DNA of 64,000 nucleotides from Acidobacteriota bacterium (GTDB taxonomy: Bacteria > Acidobacteriota > Blastocatellia > Pyrinomonadales > Pyrinomonadaceae), in assembly GCA_020200155.1 (NCBI GenBank), contig JAIVJG010000160.1, positions 130 to 64,129 of the forward strand. Direction: 5' to 3'. Positions 3,678 through 45,908 of this stretch are shown piece by piece. Position numbers and translations under genes: made by a program. Each line of letters opens with the position of its first letter. The stretch's first letter is position 1. The notes under the pieces were generated by a model. It had not been told where the DNA came from. It saw only the letters and a list, made by a program, of their open reading frames with translations, and searched no databases.

Positions 3678-3795
3678 GGGAAACGTCCTCGACGTGGTGT
3701 TAAAGTTGTTATTGAAATGAGTTTAAGAGAAGCGTATGATGCCCGCGTTCACCTCGCGCAACGCTCACGTCCAAATACAAAAAAAGGAGTTTCCA

Positions 3796-4170
3796 ATGGC
3801 TAAGAATGAATCCAGACGCCTCAAATCGTCCGATCTGGCCGCAGACCGGGAAATTTACGACGCCGTCAAGGGCATTGCCAATTATGCACCGGCGAATCCC
3901 GCTTACACTCTGATGGCGCTCGACGCCGCGCACAAAGACCTTCAGACAGCACTCGAAAACGAAACGCAGGCCGAAGCGGCGCTGGCGACCGCGCGTGATA
4001 ACGCCGTCGCTGCGAGTTGGAAATTCCACAACGCCATACTCGGCGTCAAAGATCAGGTGACGGCGCAGTTCGGCCCGGACTCGAATGAGGTGCAGGCCGT
4101 GAAGTTGAAGAAGAAGTCCGAATACAAGACGCGCACGCGTAAAGCCAAAAACACCCCGCCTCAAAAGTAG
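3796..4170 (+). CDS. Hypothetical helical protein with basic C-terminal tail (124 aa)
   Basis: ATG at 3796 is preceded by AAGGAG about 6 nt upstream (MAKNESRRLKSSD...). It lies inside ORF 3736..4170. I recognised no family. Confidence 0.55.
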   Translation: MAKNESRRLKSSDLAADREIYDAVKGIANYAPANPAYTLMALDAAHKDLQTALENETQAEAALATARDNAVAASWKFHNAILGVKDQVTAQFGPDSNEVQAVKLKKKSEYKTRTRKAKNTPPQK

Positions 4171-4193
4171 TGTGGCGGGGCGCAGGTAAAATT

Positions 4194-4235
4194 AAAGGCG
4201 AAGGAGGAGCAAGAGACAGTCCCCCCTTCGCCTTT
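4194..4235. terminator. Bidirectional stem-loop terminator between convergent genes
   Basis: AAAGGCGAAGG (4194-4204) pairs perfectly with CCTTCGCCTTT (4225-4235), 11 bp. It is A-rich upstream and has a T-run downstream. Confidence 0.6.
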
Positions 4236-4258
4236 TCTGTGTTGTTCCGACTTCGAGG

Positions 4259-5428
4259 TTACGGCGCGTCCTTCGACGGCTCGCCGGTATTCTTCGCAGG
4301 GGGCTTCACAGTCGGAGGCGGCGGCGCGGTCGGCGCGTCGTCGTCGTCGCTTCTCGTCTGCTGCTTTGTGGTCTGCGGAGCGGGCCTGTCCTTCGACGGC
4401 TGCTCCCGGCTCTTCTCGTGCGGCTTGACGGTCGAGCGGATGACGATGAACTTGTTGAGCACGTCGAACCAGAACGGCGCGCCCTGCGAGACGGCCAGCG
4501 CGGTGAGCATGAAGCCCAGCACTTTCAGGAACATGCCGTAGGGGTCTACAGGCATCCGTCGCGGGTCAATGTCGTAGGCGACGAGCGCCGCTTTGAACTG
4601 CGGGTCGGTTAAATTTTTGTACTTCGGGTCGTCCCTCTGCGGTTCGTGCGGCCACCCGATGGGCAGGTCGAGTTGATTTATCTCGCCGCGAATCTGATTG
4701 ATCTTCTGCATGGACGCGGCGGCCTGATCCTGCGTCGTGCCGGCGGGCACGGGAGCCGGAGTCGCCCCCGGCGCGGGGTTGTTTTTGGCGTAATCCTCTG
4801 CGGCGCTCACGACGCTGGCGCGTAGCGCGTCGTTCTGCGACAGAGCCTTGAGAACCATGATGCTGTCAACGTTGAGGACTATCGCCGCAAACAGCCCCAG
4901 CCCAAGCAGAATCCAGTGCGTGCGCCGCTTGTACCAGCCGGAGACGCGATCCATCGCGTCGTTGTACCACTCCTCGATGTTGGCGCGTGCCTTGTTGAAG
5001 TCGTCGCCCGCCTCGTCCATCAACGTCACGACGGCGCTCTTGATGTCATTCGGCAGCGTCGTCTCCGGCAGGCTCGCCACCGTCGCGCGCAGGAGTTTCA
5101 AATCTTCTGTCACGCCCGCGACCGCGCCCGGCGCTTTCTTCGCCTCGGACGTAGCCAGATTCCACAGCGCGAGGCTGAACGTGCGAGCGGGGATGTAAGA
5201 TGGCTTTCTCCCTTCGTTGAAGAGAGGCTTGACGAGCGGGTGCGCGAAGAACTGCTGCGCCAGCGCAGGGTTGTTGAGAAGCCTTTTGATGCCCTTCTCC
5301 AAATCCCTCGCGCGAAACTTGAAGAGCAGTTCGATGAACTCGCTGAAGGCCGAGCACAGCAGGCTCAACAGCAGGTAGACGAAGATCATCCCGATGGCGA
5401 CTTCGAGCATCGTGGAACCGAAAACCAT
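4259..5428 (-). CDS. Hypothetical integral membrane protein with Pro/Ala/Lys-rich C-terminal tail
   Basis: 389-aa ORF with hydrophobic segments (MLEVAIGMIFVYLLLSLLCSAF, HWILLGLGLFAAIVL, FLKVLGFMLTALAV) and a low-complexity tail. Confidence 0.65.
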   Translation of the reverse strand: MVFGSTMLEVAIGMIFVYLLLSLLCSAFSEFIELLFKFRARDLEKGIKRLLNNPALAQQFFAHPLVKPLFNEGRKPSYIPARTFSLALWNLATSEAKKAPGAVAGVTEDLKLLRATVASLPETTLPNDIKSAVVTLMDEAGDDFNKARANIEEWYNDAMDRVSGWYKRRTHWILLGLGLFAAIVLNVDSIMVLKALSQNDALRASVVSAAEDYAKNNPAPGATPAPVPAGTTQDQAAASMQKINQIRGEINQLDLPIGWPHEPQRDDPKYKNLTDPQFKAALVAYDIDPRRMPVDPYGMFLKVLGFMLTALAVSQGAPFWFDVLNKFIVIRSTVKPHEKSREQPSKDRPAPQTTKQQTRSDDDDAPTAPPPPTVKPPAKNTGEPSKDAP

Positions 5429-39721: not shown

Positions 39722-40585
39722 ATGGCTGTTGATGCTGCTCTACTCGCGGACACCGATTTCTTCAAACTGCTCGGCGAAGAAGATCGCAATGCTCTGGCGG
39801 AGGTCGTTGACCTCGTCAAACTAAATGAAGGAGAGACTCTCTTCAGGACTGGCGACCTGGGAGAGTCTCTTTTTCTTATCCGCGCGGGCGAAGTCGAATT
39901 GTTCGTCAAGGACACGGCGGGGCAGAAGATCGTCCTGACTGTCTCTAAGGCGGGCGACTTCTTCGGCGAGATCGCGCTGCTCGACAGCGGCCCGCGCTCG
40001 GCCACCGCGCTCGCGCTCACAGAGTGCGAACTAATCGAACTGGATCGCGGCGACCTGCTCCTGCTCTTCCAGAGAAAGCCGGACGCGGCGCTCAGCATGC
40101 TCGCCGCGATGGGGCGGATGACCAGACAGGCCGACGAACTGCTGCGCACGCGCGTCTCGCGCAACGTCAACGACGAGATGGAGACGCATCTCACGCTGAT
40201 TCAGAAAATTTCCGACTGGCTGGCGTGGTTCAGCGGCAGTATGCCTTTCCTGTTTCTTCACGCGGCGTGGTTCGTCGTCTGGGTCTCGCTCAACACTGTC
40301 ATTCTCGGCGGGCGCGCGTTCGACCCGTTCCCGTTCGGCCTGCTGACGATGATCGTCTCGCTTGAAGCAATCTTCCTTTCCTGCTTCGTCCTCATCAGCC
40401 AGAATCGCCAGGCTGAGAAAGACCATGTGCGCTCCGACGTTGAGTACGACGTAAACATCAAGGCCGAACTCGAAGTGGCACACCTGCACGAGAAGACAGA
40501 TCACATCCACGAAGAAATGATGAGAAGATTTGCGCGGCTCGAAAAGCTGCTTGCGGGGCAGACGGCTTCCGGCGAAAAAAGGTAG
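39722..40585 (+). CDS. Cyclic-nucleotide-binding domain fused to DUF1003-type membrane domain
   Basis: An N-terminal cNMP fold (FFKLLGEEDRNALA..GDFFGEIALLDSGPRSATA) is followed by two TM segments and a coiled C-terminus. The ATG immediately follows the upstream TGA. Confidence 0.8.
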   Translation: MAVDAALLADTDFFKLLGEEDRNALAEVVDLVKLNEGETLFRTGDLGESLFLIRAGEVELFVKDTAGQKIVLTVSKAGDFFGEIALLDSGPRSATALALTECELIELDRGDLLLLFQRKPDAALSMLAAMGRMTRQADELLRTRVSRNVNDEMETHLTLIQKISDWLAWFSGSMPFLFLHAAWFVVWVSLNTVILGGRAFDPFPFGLLTMIVSLEAIFLSCFVLISQNRQAEKDHVRSDVEYDVNIKAELEVAHLHEKTDHIHEEMMRRFARLEKLLAGQTASGEKR

Positions 40586-40637
40586 CGCGGCTTGCGCCGG
40601 CTTCGACCCCGGAGAAAACCGCTCGTGATTAGCCGTC

Positions 40638-40952
40638 TCACTTCGAGGGCATGAGCGTGATCTGCCACGCGATGAATGCCATGAAGGCGAGCGCGAGCAC
40701 GACGATGACGAGCGCGACCGGCTCCAGATGAAACACGCCCGCGGCTCCACGGTCTTCTTCGGCGAAATCCTTCGAGAGCGTCACCTGGTTGCTGTCCACA
40801 CGTATCGCGCCGCCGTTGTTCTCCGGCTTCCGGACGGCAGCAGTCGCCTTAACTTCTTCGAGCGGGGCGAGGCGCGCCGACACCTCAGCCGTGTTGCCCT
40901 TTTTCCTCCCGGTGTAATGTTTGTGCGGCCTGTTGCCTTTCTTCATAGCCAT
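40638..40952 (-). CDS. Small basic protein with C-terminal TM anchor
   Basis: [20 protein letters not shown]... with [21 protein letters not shown]. It overlaps the corA stop by 10 nt. Confidence 0.5.
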
Positions 40953-41914
40953 CGCATCTTCCTGAAATAAAAGTAGAGCGCCAGCCCGACGGCGACCATC
41001 GAGCCGAGCGAGAAGACGTAGCCGAAACGCCAATGGAGTTCCGGCATGAACTCGAAGTTCATCCCGTAGATGCCCGCGACCAGCGTGACGGACATGAGAA
41101 TGGTCGCAATCGAGGTCAGGCGCTTCATCACCATGTTCATGCGGTTGCCCTGCACGGAGAGGTACGCGTCCATCGTCGAGCCGAGCATGTCGCGCAGGGT
41201 GTCAATCGTGTCGGCGACGCGGATGATGTGATCGAACACGTCCTGAAAGTAGACGTGCGTCTCGCGGGCGAAGATGGGCTGTTCGCGACGCAGTATCGTG
41301 TTGAAAACGTCGCGCAAAGGGGTGATCGTGCGGCGCAGGTAAAGCAGTTGCTTCTTGATGCGGAAGATTTCCTGTATGGATTCGGGCTTGAACTCGCCGA
41401 AAATCTGGTCTTCAAGGTCGTCCATCCGGTCGCTCAAAACGTCGAGGAGCGGCAGGTAGTCGTCCACGATGGCGTCAATCAGAAGGTACGCGAGCATCCC
41501 CGCGCCGTGCTCCGCGCGATCCGTCCATTCGTGCCACAGGCGCTTGGCCGTCTCGACGGCACGAATGGGTCGGCTGTGGACTGTGACGAGATAGTTGCTG
41601 CCGAGGAAGATATTCAACTCGCGCAGTTCGAGGTCGTCGTCGGGGCCGACCAGTTCGGCCTCGTAGAGCACGATGAAGTAATAGCCCTCGTACTCTTCGA
41701 CCTTCGGGCGCTGGTGCGGGGCCTGGCAATCTTCGATGGAGAGCGGGTGAAAGTTGAACTCCTTGGCGAGTTCGATGAAGTCCTCGCTGGTCGGGTCGCT
41801 CACGTCGGCCCAGACGACGTTCTGCTTGCCCAGGCAGTGCTCGCTAATCTCTGTGGCCGGAAAGTTGTCGGTAAACTTTTTCGACTCGCTGTCGAGGCAA
41901 ACCGTGGTTATCAT
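40943..41914 (-). CDS. corA: CorA-family magnesium/cobalt transporter
   Basis: 323 aa with the [11 protein letters not shown] (GMN) signature and two C-terminal TM helices. Confidence 0.92.
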
Positions 41915-42135
41915 TTTAGCTTCGGACTCCCGTCATCTGTGCTAATCTTGCTTCATTATCATTCTCGATTAATTTTCAGAGGGGTTCATAGCTTGTCGCT
42001 CCGCGCCAGATTAACATTCGCGCTCATCAGTCTGCTCTGGATTCTGCCATTAGCTGCCCAGGCTCAACAACCCTTCATCAACCTACAGGCGCAGGTCGGC
42101 GGCAATTACGTTGACGTTCAAGGAGTAAGAATCTG

Positions 42136-43389
42136 ATGGTCATGCTGTCCGCGCTTCGCCGCTTCAGCGTGGTTGACGAGCGAGGGAAAAGCGCACGCCT
42201 TCAAGACCTGGCGGTCGCGCTCTTCGATGGCGACTACCCGCCCGTCACGCGCTTGTTCTATTCCGTCGAAGACGGGCAGCAGATGTCGCTCGGCTGGGAC
42301 GACGTGCGCGCTCTGGAATGGGAGGCGAAACAAATCAAGGTGGCCGACCTCTCGGCGGGTGAAGCGGCCCCGCCCGACTCGCTCAAGCAGGAAGTGTTGC
42401 TCGTGCGCGACGTGCTCGACGCGCTCGTGCTCGATTTGCAAAACCGGCGCACGACACGCGCCAACGACCTCTCTCTGGAAGAGAAAGACGGGCGGCTGGT
42501 GCTGCGCGCCGCAGACACGAGCGGGCGTGCGCTGCTGCGGCGTTTGAGTCGTGGGTTGTTCGCAAACGCGCCGGACGAATTTCTTTATGATTGGAAGTAC
42601 GTCGAATTTCTCCGTGGCGAGCCGCGTTCGGTTCGCAACGGCGAGGGCGAGCACCTGCGCGTCACACGCCTTCAGCCGGGCGAGATCGCCGTTCTCAGTA
42701 CGGCGATTCCATACCTCCACGCCGCAGAGTTGCTGACGCTCCTGCCCGACCCCCTCGCCGCGCAGACGCTCGAAGTGACCTTGCCGGAGCGACAGCTTCA
42801 GGTCTTCGAGGAACTCGACGAAGAAGATGCCATCAAAATGCTGACGCTCATGGCCCCGAACGTCGCGGCGGATTTGATCGGGCGGCTGGCAACCGGGACG
42901 GCGACGCGCTACCTTGAGCGCATGCCGAAAGAAAGGAGCGCGCGGGTCGTCGAACTGCTGCGTTATCCGGAAGACTCGGTCGGCGGCATTATGACCAACG
43001 AAGTCGTCTTCATTTCCTCCGGCCTGACCGTGCGAGAGGCGCGCGCGAGTCTGCGCGAAATACTCAAGAAGCCGGAATTCGTCTATCTCATCTTTCTCGT
43101 TGACGACGACAAGCAAAGGCGTCTCCAAGGGATGATCTCGCTCCGCAACCTCATCGTGGCCGACGACGACAAGCGGCTGGAAGAAATCATGGACCCTTAC
43201 GTCACCACGCTCAACCATCACGAACCGGCGCGCGAGGCCGCGTACCGAGTCATCAACAGCCACATGGCCGCGATGCCTGTGATTGACGACGAGAGGAAAT
43301 TGCTCGGCGTGGTGACGATGGACGCGGCGGTCACGCAGGTCGCCCCGGCGAGTTGGAGTTCGCAAGCGCCGAGGAGGGTCTTCACATGA
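42136..43389 (+). CDS. Soluble MgtE N-domain + CBS-pair protein (no MgtE membrane domain)
   Basis: 417 aa. The central region is MgtE_N-like (LLTLLPDPLAAQTLEVTLPERQLQVFEELDEEDAIKMLTLMAPNVAADLIGRL). Two CBS motifs follow (GGIMTNEVVFIS.., ..MAAMPVIDDERKLLGVVTMD). It ends in an ATGA overlap with the next gene. Confidence 0.8.
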   Translation: MVMLSALRRFSVVDERGKSARLQDLAVALFDGDYPPVTRLFYSVEDGQQMSLGWDDVRALEWEAKQIKVADLSAGEAAPPDSLKQEVLLVRDVLDALVLDLQNRRTTRANDLSLEEKDGRLVLRAADTSGRALLRRLSRGLFANAPDEFLYDWKYVEFLRGEPRSVRNGEGEHLRVTRLQPGEIAVLSTAIPYLHAAELLTLLPDPLAAQTLEVTLPERQLQVFEELDEEDAIKMLTLMAPNVAADLIGRLATGTATRYLERMPKERSARVVELLRYPEDSVGGIMTNEVVFISSGLTVREARASLREILKKPEFVYLIFLVDDDKQRRLQGMISLRNLIVADDDKRLEEIMDPYVTTLNHHEPAREAAYRVINSHMAAMPVIDDERKLLGVVTMDAAVTQVAPASWSSQAPRRVFT

Positions 43390-44780
43390 GCAAGGAGCCG
43401 GCACCGCAGGGACTCGAACCTCTGGCCGAGGCCGACAGCCTTGTGCTGCCGACGCGCCCGCGCAGAATTCCCACGGCCCTGCGCGTCAACATACGCGGGC
43501 GGAGCGTGCAACTGCGCGGCCTGCGCCGCCCGCCGACTGGATTGCTGCGCTGGCTGCTGATTCTTGGGCCGGGACTGATCGCGGCCTCAGCCGGCAACGA
43601 CGCGGGCGGCATCGCGACCTACAGTTCCGCCGGCGCGAAGTTCGGCTACGATCTCATCTGGGTGATGGTTATCATCACCGTGTCGCTCGCCGTCGTGCAG
43701 GAGATGTGCGCACGCCTCGGCGCGGCGACGGGCAGGGGCTTGCTCGACTTAATCCGCGAACGCTTCGGCGTCGGCTGGACGCTCCTCGCCGTCACGATCA
43801 TCCTCGTCGCCAACGGCGGGCTGGTCGTCAGCGAGTTCGTCGGCATCGGCGCGGCTTCGGAACTGTTCGGCGTCAGCAAGTACATCGCGGTTCCGCTGGG
43901 CGCGGCGCTGCTCTGGTATCTGGTCATCTTCGGCTCGTACAGTTGGGTCGAAAAAATATTCCTCGCGATGACACTCGTCTTCTTCGCCTACCCCGTCGCA
44001 GCCATCATGGCCCACCCACACTGGCCCGAAGTCGCGCGCGGCGCTTTCATCCCCAAGCTGCAACTGGACTCTGACTACATCTTCATCCTCGTCGGCTTGC
44101 TCGGCACGACCATCACGCCTTACATGCAACTGTTCCAGCAAAGTTCCCTCGTCGAGAAGGGCGTCGCGCGACGCCACTACGGCCCCGAACGCATAGACAC
44201 ATACTTCGGCGCTGGCTTCTCCAACATGATGTCCATCTTTATGATTATCGCCACGGCGGCCACGCTCCACGTCGCAGGCCAGACCGACATCAACACCGCC
44301 GCCGACGCCGCGCGTGCGCTCGAACCCCTGATGGGCAGCTCGGCCCCGATGCTTTTCGGAACGGGTTTGCTCGGCGCGTCGCTTCTGGCCGGGGCCGTGC
44401 TCCCGCTCGCCACCTCCTACGCCGTCAGCGAAGCCTTCGGTCTCCCGAAGGGCGTCAACTTAGACTTCCGCCGCGCGCCGAAATTCTTCATGCTCTTTAC
44501 CGCGCTGATCGTGTTCGGCGCGGGCATCGCGCTAATCCCCGGCGTGCCTGTCATCCAACTGCTCGTCGCCATTCAGGTGCTTAACGGCATCATGCTGCCG
44601 ATCATCCTGATCTTCATCCTCATCCTCATCAACGACGAGCACCTGACCGGCGAACTCAAAAACACGCGCCTCTACAACGTACTCGGCTGGGGGACGTTCG
44701 CCATGATTACGACGGCGGTCGTCGTCATGCTGGGCGGGCAGTTGCTGGAATTCTTCGGCGTCAAACTCTTCGGCGGCTGA
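43386..44780 (+). CDS. NRAMP/SLC11-family transporter with non-canonical metal-site motifs (DAGG / TPY)
   Basis: Colinear with MntH: LGPGLIAASAGNDAGGIATYSSAGAKFGY against [29 protein letters not shown], and TM6 LGTTITPYMQLF against LGATIMPHVIYL. Confidence 0.85.
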   Translation: MSKEPAPQGLEPLAEADSLVLPTRPRRIPTALRVNIRGRSVQLRGLRRPPTGLLRWLLILGPGLIAASAGNDAGGIATYSSAGAKFGYDLIWVMVIITVSLAVVQEMCARLGAATGRGLLDLIRERFGVGWTLLAVTIILVANGGLVVSEFVGIGAASELFGVSKYIAVPLGAALLWYLVIFGSYSWVEKIFLAMTLVFFAYPVAAIMAHPHWPEVARGAFIPKLQLDSDYIFILVGLLGTTITPYMQLFQQSSLVEKGVARRHYGPERIDTYFGAGFSNMMSIFMIIATAATLHVAGQTDINTAADAARALEPLMGSSAPMLFGTGLLGASLLAGAVLPLATSYAVSEAFGLPKGVNLDFRRAPKFFMLFTALIVFGAGIALIPGVPVIQLLVAIQVLNGIMLPIILIFILILINDEHLTGELKNTRLYNVLGWGTFAMITTAVVVMLGGQLLEFFGVKLFGG

Positions 44781-45029
44781 AGCGGCGTTCCCCCGGCAAG
44801 CGTCCTGGTTCACTCACAAAGGACACGGAGAGATGTCACAGAGGTACGAAAAGTGTCCGCGCACGCTTGGCGTTCGCCAATGGTTCATTACATTTGCATT
44901 TAAATGTTGACTCTCTATCGGACTCTTACATAACTATTACAAACGAAGCGCCCGCTTCCTGCTACGATTCACTTACCCCCGCATCAAAATCAACAGCTTT
45001 ACTTTTTCACTCGCACGGAGGAGTCACGC

Positions 45030-45908
45030 ATGCCGGATCAAGCCGTTATCAACAGCAGACGCACGGGGATCAACTGGTCTACCTGTATCACGATGGTCGT
45101 CTTCCACGCCGCGTCAATCGCCGCGCTCTTTATGTTCACATGGAAGGGGCTGGCGGCGGCGGCGCTGCTCTGGTGGATTTCGGGCAGCCTCGGCATCGGC
45201 ATGGGCTTCCACCGCCTGCTGACGCATCGCGGCTTCAAGACGCCGAAGTGGGTCGAATACTTCCTGACCATCTGCGGCATGCTCACGCTCGAAAGCGGCG
45301 CGATCAACTGGGTGGCGACGCACCGCATACACCATTCGCACACAGACGCCCCCGGCGACCCGCACACGCCGCGCGACGGCGCTTGGTGGGCGCACATCGG
45401 CTGGATTCTGACCGGCACCGCGCAGCAGCATGACGAAGCGATACTGCGCCGCTACACGCCCGATTTGATGAAGGACAAAGTCCACGTCTGGCTCAACAAG
45501 TGGTTTTACCTGCCGCTCGTCGTCGTCGGGGTGCTGCTCTTCGCGCTCGGTGGCTGGTCTCTTTTGATGTGGGGCATCTTCATGCGCGTGACGGTGGGCT
45601 GGCACGCCACATGGCTCGTCAACTCGGCGACGCACATGTGGGGCACGCGCCGCTTCGAGACGAACGAGGATTCGACGAACAACCCCGTCGTCGCGCTCCT
45701 CACCTTCGGCGAGGGCTGGCACAACAACCACCACGCGTATCCGAGGGCCGCGCGCCACGGCTTCGCATGGTACGAACTGGATGTTAACTGGATGGGGATT
45801 CGCGCGCTGCAACTCCTCGGACTGGCGCACGACATCAAGCTCTTTAAAGACGCGGAGCCGTCCGTCGAGGACGATGCGTCCGTCGGTATTCTTTCAAAAG
45901 CGGCTTAA
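45030..45908 (+). CDS. Membrane acyl-CoA/acyl-lipid delta-9-type fatty acid desaturase
   Basis: Three histidine boxes: HRLLTH, HRIHHSH and GEGWHNNHH. Confidence 0.9.
   Translation: MPDQAVINSRRTGINWSTCITMVVFHAASIAALFMFTWKGLAAAALLWWISGSLGIGMGFHRLLTHRGFKTPKWVEYFLTICGMLTLESGAINWVATHRIHHSHTDAPGDPHTPRDGAWWAHIGWILTGTAQQHDEAILRRYTPDLMKDKVHVWLNKWFYLPLVVVGVLLFALGGWSLLMWGIFMRVTVGWHATWLVNSATHMWGTRRFETNEDSTNNPVVALLTFGEGWHNNHHAYPRAARHGFAWYELDVNWMGIRALQLLGLAHDIKLFKDAEPSVEDDASVGILSKAA

Follow-up and report, generated by a model that had tools for sequence, protein, structure and literature searches.

Shin et al. (2014; PMC4072509), who named NrmT, described most NrmT genes as following a gene for a homologue of the cytoplasmic domain of MgtE. 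They called this partner ancillary and speculated that it provides cytoplasmic feedback regulation, with chaperone activity as an alternative. One acidobacterial pair, ACP_2976/ACP_2977 of Acidobacterium capsulatum, which has no M-box riboswitch, was tested in Bacillus subtilis in the same study. Papers on the structure and evolution of the NRMT transporters leave the partner unaddressed (PMC8806188, PMC9606685, PMC10606218). Here, we describe a partner–NRMT gene pair in a 64,000-nucleotide stretch of DNA from an Acidobacteriota bacterium of the family Pyrinomonadaceae (GenBank assembly GCA_020200155.1, contig JAIVJG010000160.1), referred to below as the window. The transporter family and its MgtE-like pairing are already published, and the locus adds a member, not a concept. 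An original prediction, made from the letters of the window, had taken the pairing to be uncharacterised; because Shin et al. had already described it and tested an acidobacterial pair (PMC4072509), that claim of novelty is wrong.

One NRMT with a solved structure is EleNRMT of Eggerthella lenta (7QIA/7QIC), which carries Mg2+ and Mn2+ but not Ca2+, and does so without H+ coupling (PMC8806188). Its Michaelis constant (Km) for Mn2+ is ~120 uM, and its dissociation constants (Kd) are ~100 uM for Mn2+ and ~400 uM for Mg2+. EleNRMT T224 is specifically required for Mg2+ transport, Q379, the alpha10 Gln, is needed for transport, and the two histidine positions of transmembrane helix (TM) 6b are occupied by Trp and Asn; the protein is unstable in detergent, such that consensus mutations were required (PMC8806188). 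Binding-site signatures distinguish NRMTs (DxxG-TxxA/T) from classical NRAMPs (DxxN-AxxM) and NRATs (DxxN-AxxT) (Ramanadane et al. 2022, PMC8806188).

In the window, the pair and its junction are arranged as follows.

42136-43389, forward strand: partner gene, encoding a 417-aa soluble protein (open reading frame [ORF]; Pfam; match to structure 2YVY; upstream of NRMT in 78/78 testable loci).
43386-44780, forward strand: transporter gene, 464 aa from the ATG, NRMT clade (ORF; Pfam Nramp; EleNRMT as best match; score below the NCBIfam MntH cutoff).
43371-43389, forward strand: translational-coupling junction, consisting of a GAGGAGG Shine-Dalgarno sequence (43371-43377) and ATGA (43386-43389), read directly from the sequence.

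The junction sequence is CACATGAGC. The transporter ATG (43386-43388) overlaps the partner TGA (43387-43389) in a 4-nt ATGA, with the GAGGAGG located 8 nt 5' of the ATG; an AAGGAG at 42120-42125 lies 5' of the partner ATG. By virtue of translational coupling, the partner would be made in fixed proportion to the transporter; among public transcript runs, none containing this DNA was found that could document co-transcription. The gene models of the original prediction stand: the ATGA overlap can be read directly, Pfam agrees on a 417-aa protein with MgtE_N and tandem CBS motifs and no membrane domain, and the 464-aa NRAMP-fold transporter matches Pfam Nramp (PF01566) with E 9e-95. Searches for regulatory elements gave little. 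Neither an M-box riboswitch nor any other Rfam family matched at E <= 1 within 40500-45200; an nhmmer search with the 226 nt upstream and 250 nt downstream against 80 homologous loci (see below) returned no significant conserved 5' leader or 3' element; and a promoter/terminator scan around the operon was at or below shuffle expectation.

The Nramp match of the transporter covers model positions 1-356 of 357. Its top solved relative is EleNRMT (7QIA; E 3.7e-99, 336 bits, ~50% identity over the aligned stretch), whereas MntH structures score no more than 107 bits (DraNramp, 107 bits, E 1e-29) and the plant NRAT 8ONT scores 58 bits. Against the NCBIfam MntH model NF001923, the transporter reaches 158 bits, below the cutoff of 430, and its identity to canonical MntH is 27%. 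The metal-site motifs, mapped by alignments to the MntH proteins of D. radiodurans and E. coli K-12 (NC_000913), are the following.

43599-43610, forward strand: TM1 metal-site motif D72-A-G-G75 (DxxG), from alignments to MntH and EleNRMT.
44106-44123, forward strand: TM6 motif T241-T-I-T244-P-Y246 (TxxT), from alignments to MntH and EleNRMT.

The DPGN motif of MntH corresponds to D72-A-G-G75, and A-T-I-M-P-H to T241-T-I-T-P-Y246. Both alignments agree with the original prediction that Asn, Met and His are all replaced. The TM6b histidines of E. coli MntH correspond to Y246 and Q251, while the alpha10 Gln and TM3 Glu are kept as Q397 and E150, respectively. Across the family, the TM6 motif is uniformly GTT[ILV]TPY in a soil clade and GTTIAPW in the Eggerthellaceae clade. 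In the set of 81 soil-clade loci, the former Met position is always Thr or Ser, apart from the Eggerthellaceae-type loci, where it is Ala. The window transporter has the NRMT signature exactly, in its TxxT variant. It lacks the NRAT signature, with Gly and not Asn in TM1, and Thr and not Ala at the first TM6 position. Bit scores (336 for EleNRMT against 107 for MntH), the failed MntH cutoff and the motifs together place the protein in the NRMT clade and outside canonical MntH; a grouping with canonical MntH was the result that the original prediction had named as its own refutation.

Two other features of the transporter family came to light. Soil-clade NRMTs have an N-terminal cytosolic extension of ~50 residues (residues 1-55 in the window, 43386-43550) with a conserved basic segment, RLNIRGRSVxLRGLRR.P.GLLRW, which is absent from Eggerthellaceae NRMTs and is possibly a regulatory or docking segment. 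A 516-aa NRMT (P0175) has an internal tandem duplication of ~50 residues.

Conservation of the pair was assessed by searching a single genome of each GTDB species, the query being an alignment of NRMTs. This yielded 395 relatives, and the best 80 loci (65-83% identity) were used. They come from Pyrinomonadaceae and other Acidobacteriota, Anaerolineales, Thermomicrobiaceae, Herpetosiphonaceae, Udaeobacter, Chthoniobacterales, Abditibacteriaceae and others. The partner is directly upstream of NRMT in all 78 testable loci, the remaining two being cut by a contig end. Full-length homologues of the partner are also found upstream of NRMT in the Eggerthellaceae clade of EleNRMT, where the NRMT is 91% identical to the 7QIA sequence. 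When the window, two metagenomic contigs and the Eggerthellaceae loci are included, giving 83 pairs, the ATGA overlap is kept in 66; three pairs have a 1-nt overlap, and most others have gaps of at most 123 nt. Clustering of all ORFs within 5 kb on either side of the 80 loci recovered NRMT in 80 and the partner in 77, with all other clusters being shadow ORFs or occurring in at most 14 loci; hence, this clustering found no third conserved gene, including an MgtE consisting of the transmembrane domain only. Pairwise divergences of partner and transporter are correlated (r = 0.82), with the partner evolving faster (mean distance 0.47 vs 0.30). The partner and NRMT genes are a self-contained, probably horizontally mobile two-gene cassette of a known kind. 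The co-occurrence check proposed in the original prediction therefore came out in its favor, with the pairing conserved in every testable locus and in several phyla.

The same cassette, with 65-77% transporter identity, is present in metagenome-assembled genomes (MAGs) labelled Chloroflexota, Verrucomicrobiota, Abditibacteriaceae and "delta proteobacterium" (L014, L017, L019, L026, L032, L034, L040, L053, L055, L061, L066, L070, L071, L073 and L078). Such a distribution suggests that the cassette has spread horizontally between soil bacteria, unless some of the MAGs were wrongly binned. In two loci, the match to the partner stops early: past residue ~200 in L074 (about 3715-4947) and past residue ~365 in L060 (3753-4877). 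These breaks may be frameshifts, pseudogenes or assembly errors.

The partner protein can be divided into five regions, all encoded on the forward strand.

42136-42375, forward strand: residues 1-80, probable PRC-barrel-type domain of divergent sequence (Eggerthellaceae orthologue; family matches; AlphaFold2).
42391-42615, forward strand: residues 86-160, strongly conserved, of uncertain fold (conservation among 37 diverse members).
42664-42975, forward strand: residues 177-280, helical MgtE N-domain (Pfam PF03448; corresponds to residues 26-127 of TtMgtE).
42976-43332, forward strand: residues 281-399, CBS pair (Pfam CBS; alignment to the TtMgtE CBS domains; predicted local distance difference test score [pLDDT] 80-94).
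43333-43386, forward strand: residues 400-417, C-terminal tail, with moderate conservation of P404, W407, R413 and F416.

The C-terminal part of the protein is derived from MgtE. Pfam finds MgtE_N (PF03448) at residues 179-280 (E 1e-16, full-length, 1-102) and two CBS stretches (E 3e-15), and no membrane domain. Among solved structures, MgtE cytosolic domains are the top matches (2YVY, E 1.6e-25), with TtMgtE 26-249 aligned to partner residues 177-399. When an AlphaFold2 model (mean pLDDT 72.9, core mostly >80) was searched with Foldseek, 2YVY was again a match (E 1e-17, TMt 0.76). Against TIGR00400, the partner scores 117 bits, below the cutoff of 233, and covers only model positions 27-248. 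The pore domain and plug helix of MgtE are both missing, as the protein ends 18 residues past the CBS pair; the place of the plug helix is taken by the tail, of which residues 407-417 are predicted to be disordered (pLDDT <50). The partner is a homologue of the MgtE cytosolic domain and the product of the NrmT-associated "MgtE-like ancillary gene".

Residues 1-176, ~40% of the protein, have no MgtE counterpart. In the window copy, a Pfam search of this N-terminal region gave no match, including to PF05239. The Eggerthellaceae orthologue (450 aa), whose alignment to the window copy starts at residue 1 (29% identity, E 1e-38), matches PF05239 PRC at residues 2-70 (E 8e-12). Across 37 diverse partner members, PRC is matched in eight, and MgtE_N and CBS in all 37. 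The AlphaFold2 model has a beta-barrel at residues 1-80 (block pLDDT mostly 62-89). Profile matches and model together identify residues 1-80 as a probable PRC-barrel-type domain of divergent sequence. The following segment, residues 86-160, is conserved on par with the MgtE-derived part, and D95, D100, R108, D111, L114, D127, R136 and W153 are each at least 92% conserved in the 37 members. It is modelled with pLDDT <55. As isolated segments, residues 86-160 matched PF05239 in two of 14 cases (best E 5e-4); hhalign to the first barrel was not significant (2% probability), and a profile search of the PDB gave no meaningful match. The segment is possibly a second PRC barrel. In a library of 1.84 billion proteins, 463 clusters at the 50% identity level contain the whole N-terminal region; complete members are nearly all 395-472 aa long, a length that points to the architecture of the partner. 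We found no link between a PRC barrel and the NRMT/partner system in the literature searched. The "split MgtE cytosolic sensor" of the original prediction is accordingly right in part: the MgtE_N and CBS homology holds, but ~40% of the protein is an N-terminal region, probably of PRC-barrel type, which is foreign to MgtE and which the prediction passed over. In the representative library, one 717-aa protein (P0279) joins a permease domain of the AI-2E_transport type (PF01594) to two elements of the partner family, the PRC-type region and MgtE_N. Either the partner module may have a role with other transporters as well, or the fusion may be an artefact of gene calling.

The ligand sites of TtMgtE, as defined in PMC5882242 and PMC5529423, were located in the partner by alignment, with the TtMgtE numbering validated on I28, I84, I190 and I242.

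E59 (Mg7): partner Q210, codon 42763-42765, forward strand.
D91 (Mg4): partner N242, codon 42859-42861, forward strand.
D95 (Mg6): partner D246, kept.
D214 (Mg2+ ligand): partner P364.
D226 (Mg5): partner H376.
D247 (Mg4): partner A397.
Y170 (ATP site): partner L318.
R187 (ATP site): partner R337, kept.
D188 (ATP site): partner N338.
N203 (ATP site): partner D353.
F227 (ATP stacking): partner M377.

In TtMgtE, the F227A substitution abolishes ATP binding. The family differs from the window copy at the N-domain positions. Among the 37 diverse partners, Asp or Glu is found at the equivalents of E59, D91 and D95 in 30, 34 and 33 members, respectively. The CBS-side Mg2+ ligands are not conserved in this set, and the F227 position is Leu in 30 members. 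The retention of the acidic N-domain positions suggests that the family may still bind divalent cations there. In the window copy, two of these three acidic residues are amides, and the CBS-side MgtE ligands and the ATP-stacking Phe are absent. Its sensing chemistry can therefore hardly be taken over unchanged from MgtE, and the MgtE-type Mg2+/ATP sensing of the original prediction is reduced to analogy. In an alignment of 32 close homologues, one other member has Gln at the E59 position and one has Asn at the D91 position. His376 is conserved in 30/32 of these close homologues, whereas the position is H, Q, N or G across the wider family; we considered it as a family-wide transition-metal ligand and rejected this idea because the His is conserved only among close relatives.

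Compared with the described systems, the transporter is closest to EleNRMT. The two share the clade, the TM1 DAGG, the TM6 Thr in place of Ala, the alpha10 Gln and the loss of the TM6b histidines, and a close Eggerthellaceae orthologue of EleNRMT, 42% identical over its full length to the window transporter, has an upstream PRC-MgtE_N-CBS gene. They differ at Thr244 versus Ala (TxxT versus TxxA, both within the published consensus), at Tyr246 versus Trp, and in the ~50-residue N-terminal cytosolic extension of the window protein. The operon resembles the NrmT operons of C. acetobutylicum (Ca_c0685) and A. capsulatum (ACP_2976/ACP_2977), in which a homologue of the MgtE cytoplasmic domain is encoded immediately upstream of an Nramp-related transporter. 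The A. capsulatum pair also shares an acidobacterial host and the absence of an M-box, a riboswitch that precedes many but not all operons of this kind and does not define them. By contrast, clostridial NrmT operons are M-box regulated, one of them with the partner split into two genes, and ACP_2977 behaved mainly as a Mn2+ transporter. TtMgtE (2YVY/2ZY9/5X9H) and the partner share the fold of the N-domain and CBS pair, as well as the R187 and D95 equivalents, and the acidic E59/D91 equivalents are kept across the partner family. Unlike TtMgtE, the partner has no transmembrane domain or plug helix and has the extra ~176-residue PRC-type N-terminal region; its D214, D226, D247 and F227 positions are replaced, and E59/D91 are Gln/Asn in the window. 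E. coli MntH and DraNramp have in common with the transporter the LeuT/Nramp fold, the TM1 Asp, the TM3 Glu and the alpha10 Gln, but their Asn, Ala, Met and both TM6b histidines are replaced.

Taken as a whole, we read the pair as a Mg2+/Mn2+ uptake carrier that works without H+ coupling and is regulated in trans by a cytosolic subunit, a reading that we consider probable, if only modestly so. The carrier, an NRMT-clade protein of the SLC11/LeuT fold, would have an enlarged metal site formed by Asp72, Gly75, Thr241, Thr244 and Gln397; from homology to EleNRMT, this site would accept largely hydrated Mg2+, and also Mn2+. Because the proton-pathway histidines are missing, the membrane potential rather than H+ symport would probably power uptake, as suggested by the homologues. 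By analogy with MgtE, the partner, probably dimerised through its CBS pairs, would bind to the carrier from the cytoplasmic side and throttle uptake when the cytosolic signal is high. What CorA and MgtE have in cis, a gating domain, would thereby be provided in trans. The signal would probably be a divalent cation, bound by the N-domain acidic cluster that the family has kept. Candidate docking elements are the PRC-type half of the partner and the conserved C-terminal tail in place of the plug helix. For the partner, regulation in trans would be the most reasonable reading.

Several observations weigh against this proposal. No M-box riboswitch surrounds the operon (Rfam, 40500-45200). In the window copy, D246 is the sole acidic residue at the six positions mapped to MgtE Mg2+ ligands, and ATP-site residues are changed (F227 to M377 and Y170 to L318). 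In B. subtilis, ACP_2977 fully rescued an mntH/mntABCD (Mn2+) mutant and only partly rescued a Mg2+ transport mutant, and co-expression of ACP_2976 gave no better Mg2+ rescue (PMC4072509). NrmT in B. subtilis and purified EleNRMT both function without the partner (PMC4072509, PMC8806188). Lastly, we infer the physical complex, and the regulation of the carrier by the partner, by analogy. The "Mg2+ uptake system" of the original prediction therefore survives in part: characterised members of the NRMT clade carry Mg2+ and Mn2+, but because ACP_2977 gave full Mn2+ and partial Mg2+ rescue, the label is not secure for the acidobacterial lineage.

A further-reaching version of the proposal, possible but on balance doubtful, is that the partner is an obligate, bound subunit that docks through its PRC-type half and makes an uncoupled SLC11 uniporter a ligand-gated carrier. 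In this case, the docking half would be the part that holds the near-invariant cluster of D95, D100, D111, D127, R108, R136 and W153, and the sensing chemistry would be of a non-MgtE kind, because neither the CBS-side Mg2+ ligands of MgtE nor its ATP-stacking Phe has been retained.

The main rival to a regulated Mg2+/Mn2+ carrier, which we judge unlikely, is that the cassette is physiologically a Mn2+ uptake system, with a carrier that mainly imports Mn2+ and a partner that responds to Mn2+ and not to Mg2+. The rescue pattern of ACP_2977, whose gene likewise follows an MgtE-like gene and lacks an M-box, fits this rival, as do the tighter binding of Mn2+ (Kd ~100 uM) than of Mg2+ (~400 uM) by EleNRMT, the missing M-box at the window operon, and the presence of His376 in place of the Mg ligand D226 in the close family (30/32). 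However, this position is variable (H/Q/N/G) in the wider family, and Thr241, the equivalent of the T224 that EleNRMT specifically needs for Mg2+ transport, is present. An EleNRMT-like Mn2+ Km (~100 uM) would be ill-suited to Mn2+ at environmental levels; Mg2+, by contrast, is plentiful. In addition, corA adjoins the cassette in the window and in its closest relative.

An improbable alternative is that the partner is no gate but serves as a metal chaperone or buffer, or helps the carrier to assemble or to remain stable. Such a role would suit PRC barrels, which are protein-binding modules of a generic kind. Transport proceeds without the partner in heterologous and in vitro systems, EleNRMT is unstable in detergent and needed consensus mutations, and Shin et al. 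themselves named chaperone activity as an alternative (PMC4072509). Against this, the MgtE N-domain acidic cluster is kept across the partner family. CBS pairs on transporters (MgtE, CorC/CNNM, ClC, OpuCA), as seen among the Foldseek neighbours of the partner, are typically regulatory. Finally, the partner could be the cytosolic half of an MgtE channel that has been split in two, with a transmembrane-only MgtE elsewhere and an incidental NRAMP neighbor; ~2,600 transmembrane-only MgtE cases do exist (bioRxiv 10.1101/2025.05.26.656215) and the core fold of the partner is that of the MgtE cytosolic domain, but we consider this highly improbable given the strict NRMT linkage (78/78 loci across phyla) with translational coupling, the absence of a third conserved gene within 5 kb on either side, the short tail in place of a plug helix, the added PRC region foreign to MgtE, and the TIGR00400 score of 117 bits against a cutoff of 233. 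Because that 2025 survey of MgtE architectures starts from the transmembrane domain, it does not cover the partner.

The genes upstream of the cassette in the window are context, as set out here.

40638-41914, reverse strand: corA (40943-41914) and a coupled small membrane-protein gene (~40638-40946), divergent from the cassette (Pfam CorA, E 9e-80; score above the TIGR00383 equivalog cutoff).
41993-42136, forward strand: 47-codon remnant of an outer-membrane beta-barrel-like gene (tblastn with the 257/267-aa protein of the closest relative).

The small gene most likely starts at 40946, encodes ~102 aa and overlaps the corA stop. Its product, which no Pfam or NCBIfam model matches, carries a transmembrane helix at the C terminus and may be a small, CorA-coupled membrane protein of an uncharacterised kind. 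L083, the closest metagenomic relative, encodes a 105-aa homologue (44% identity) at the same place after corA. The identity between the window and L083 is 76% for the partner and 89-90% for the transporter, and it is only in L083 that corA and the small coupled gene also adjoin the cassette. No corA was found within 5 kb of the cassette in any of the 80 species-level loci, and we therefore rejected corA as part of a conserved system. The remnant begins with a signal-peptide-like start, LSLRARLTFALISLLWILPLAAQAQQPF..., joined by internal deletion to the C-terminal ~20 residues, and its stop overlaps the partner ATG (TGATG). In tblastn, the 257/267-aa protein (L083 and L084; faint PF13557) matches the window at 42005-42097 (E 2e-6) and 42083-42166; the intact gene lies between corA and the partner in L083, and near the cassette in ~12 other loci. 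The remnant is outside the conserved module. The original prediction had described corA and a small gene as divergent and 220 bp away; both genes are present, but about two-thirds of this gap is the gene remnant, and the adjacency is not conserved. A gene for a membrane protein with cNMP_binding and DUF1003 domains is located at 39722-40585 of the window (forward strand), with corA and the small gene lying between it and the cassette. It adjoins the cassette in several Pyrinomonadaceae (66-73% identity; L002, L028, L035, L037, L041, L060 and L062), often divergently and ~200 bp upstream of the partner.

CorA and MgtE have cytosolic Mg2+ gates of their own, and NRMTs have none; as NRMTs are both gateless and uncoupled, uncontrolled influx through them should be harmful. 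The present analysis sharpens the published picture in that the two genes form a strict unit in soil and gut bacteria of several phyla, that ~40% of the partner is sequence of probable PRC-barrel type, unremarked in the papers found, and that the most conserved partner residues are outside the MgtE-derived part, with the Mg2+/ATP sites of MgtE largely lost. The conserved and lost residues provide concrete targets and constructs for trans-regulation of an SLC11 carrier. If the partner were indeed an obligate subunit, the doubtful case described above, it would be the first demonstration that a free-standing module derived from MgtE gates a LeuT-fold metal carrier in trans, and the role of the "ancillary gene", a question since 2014, would be settled.

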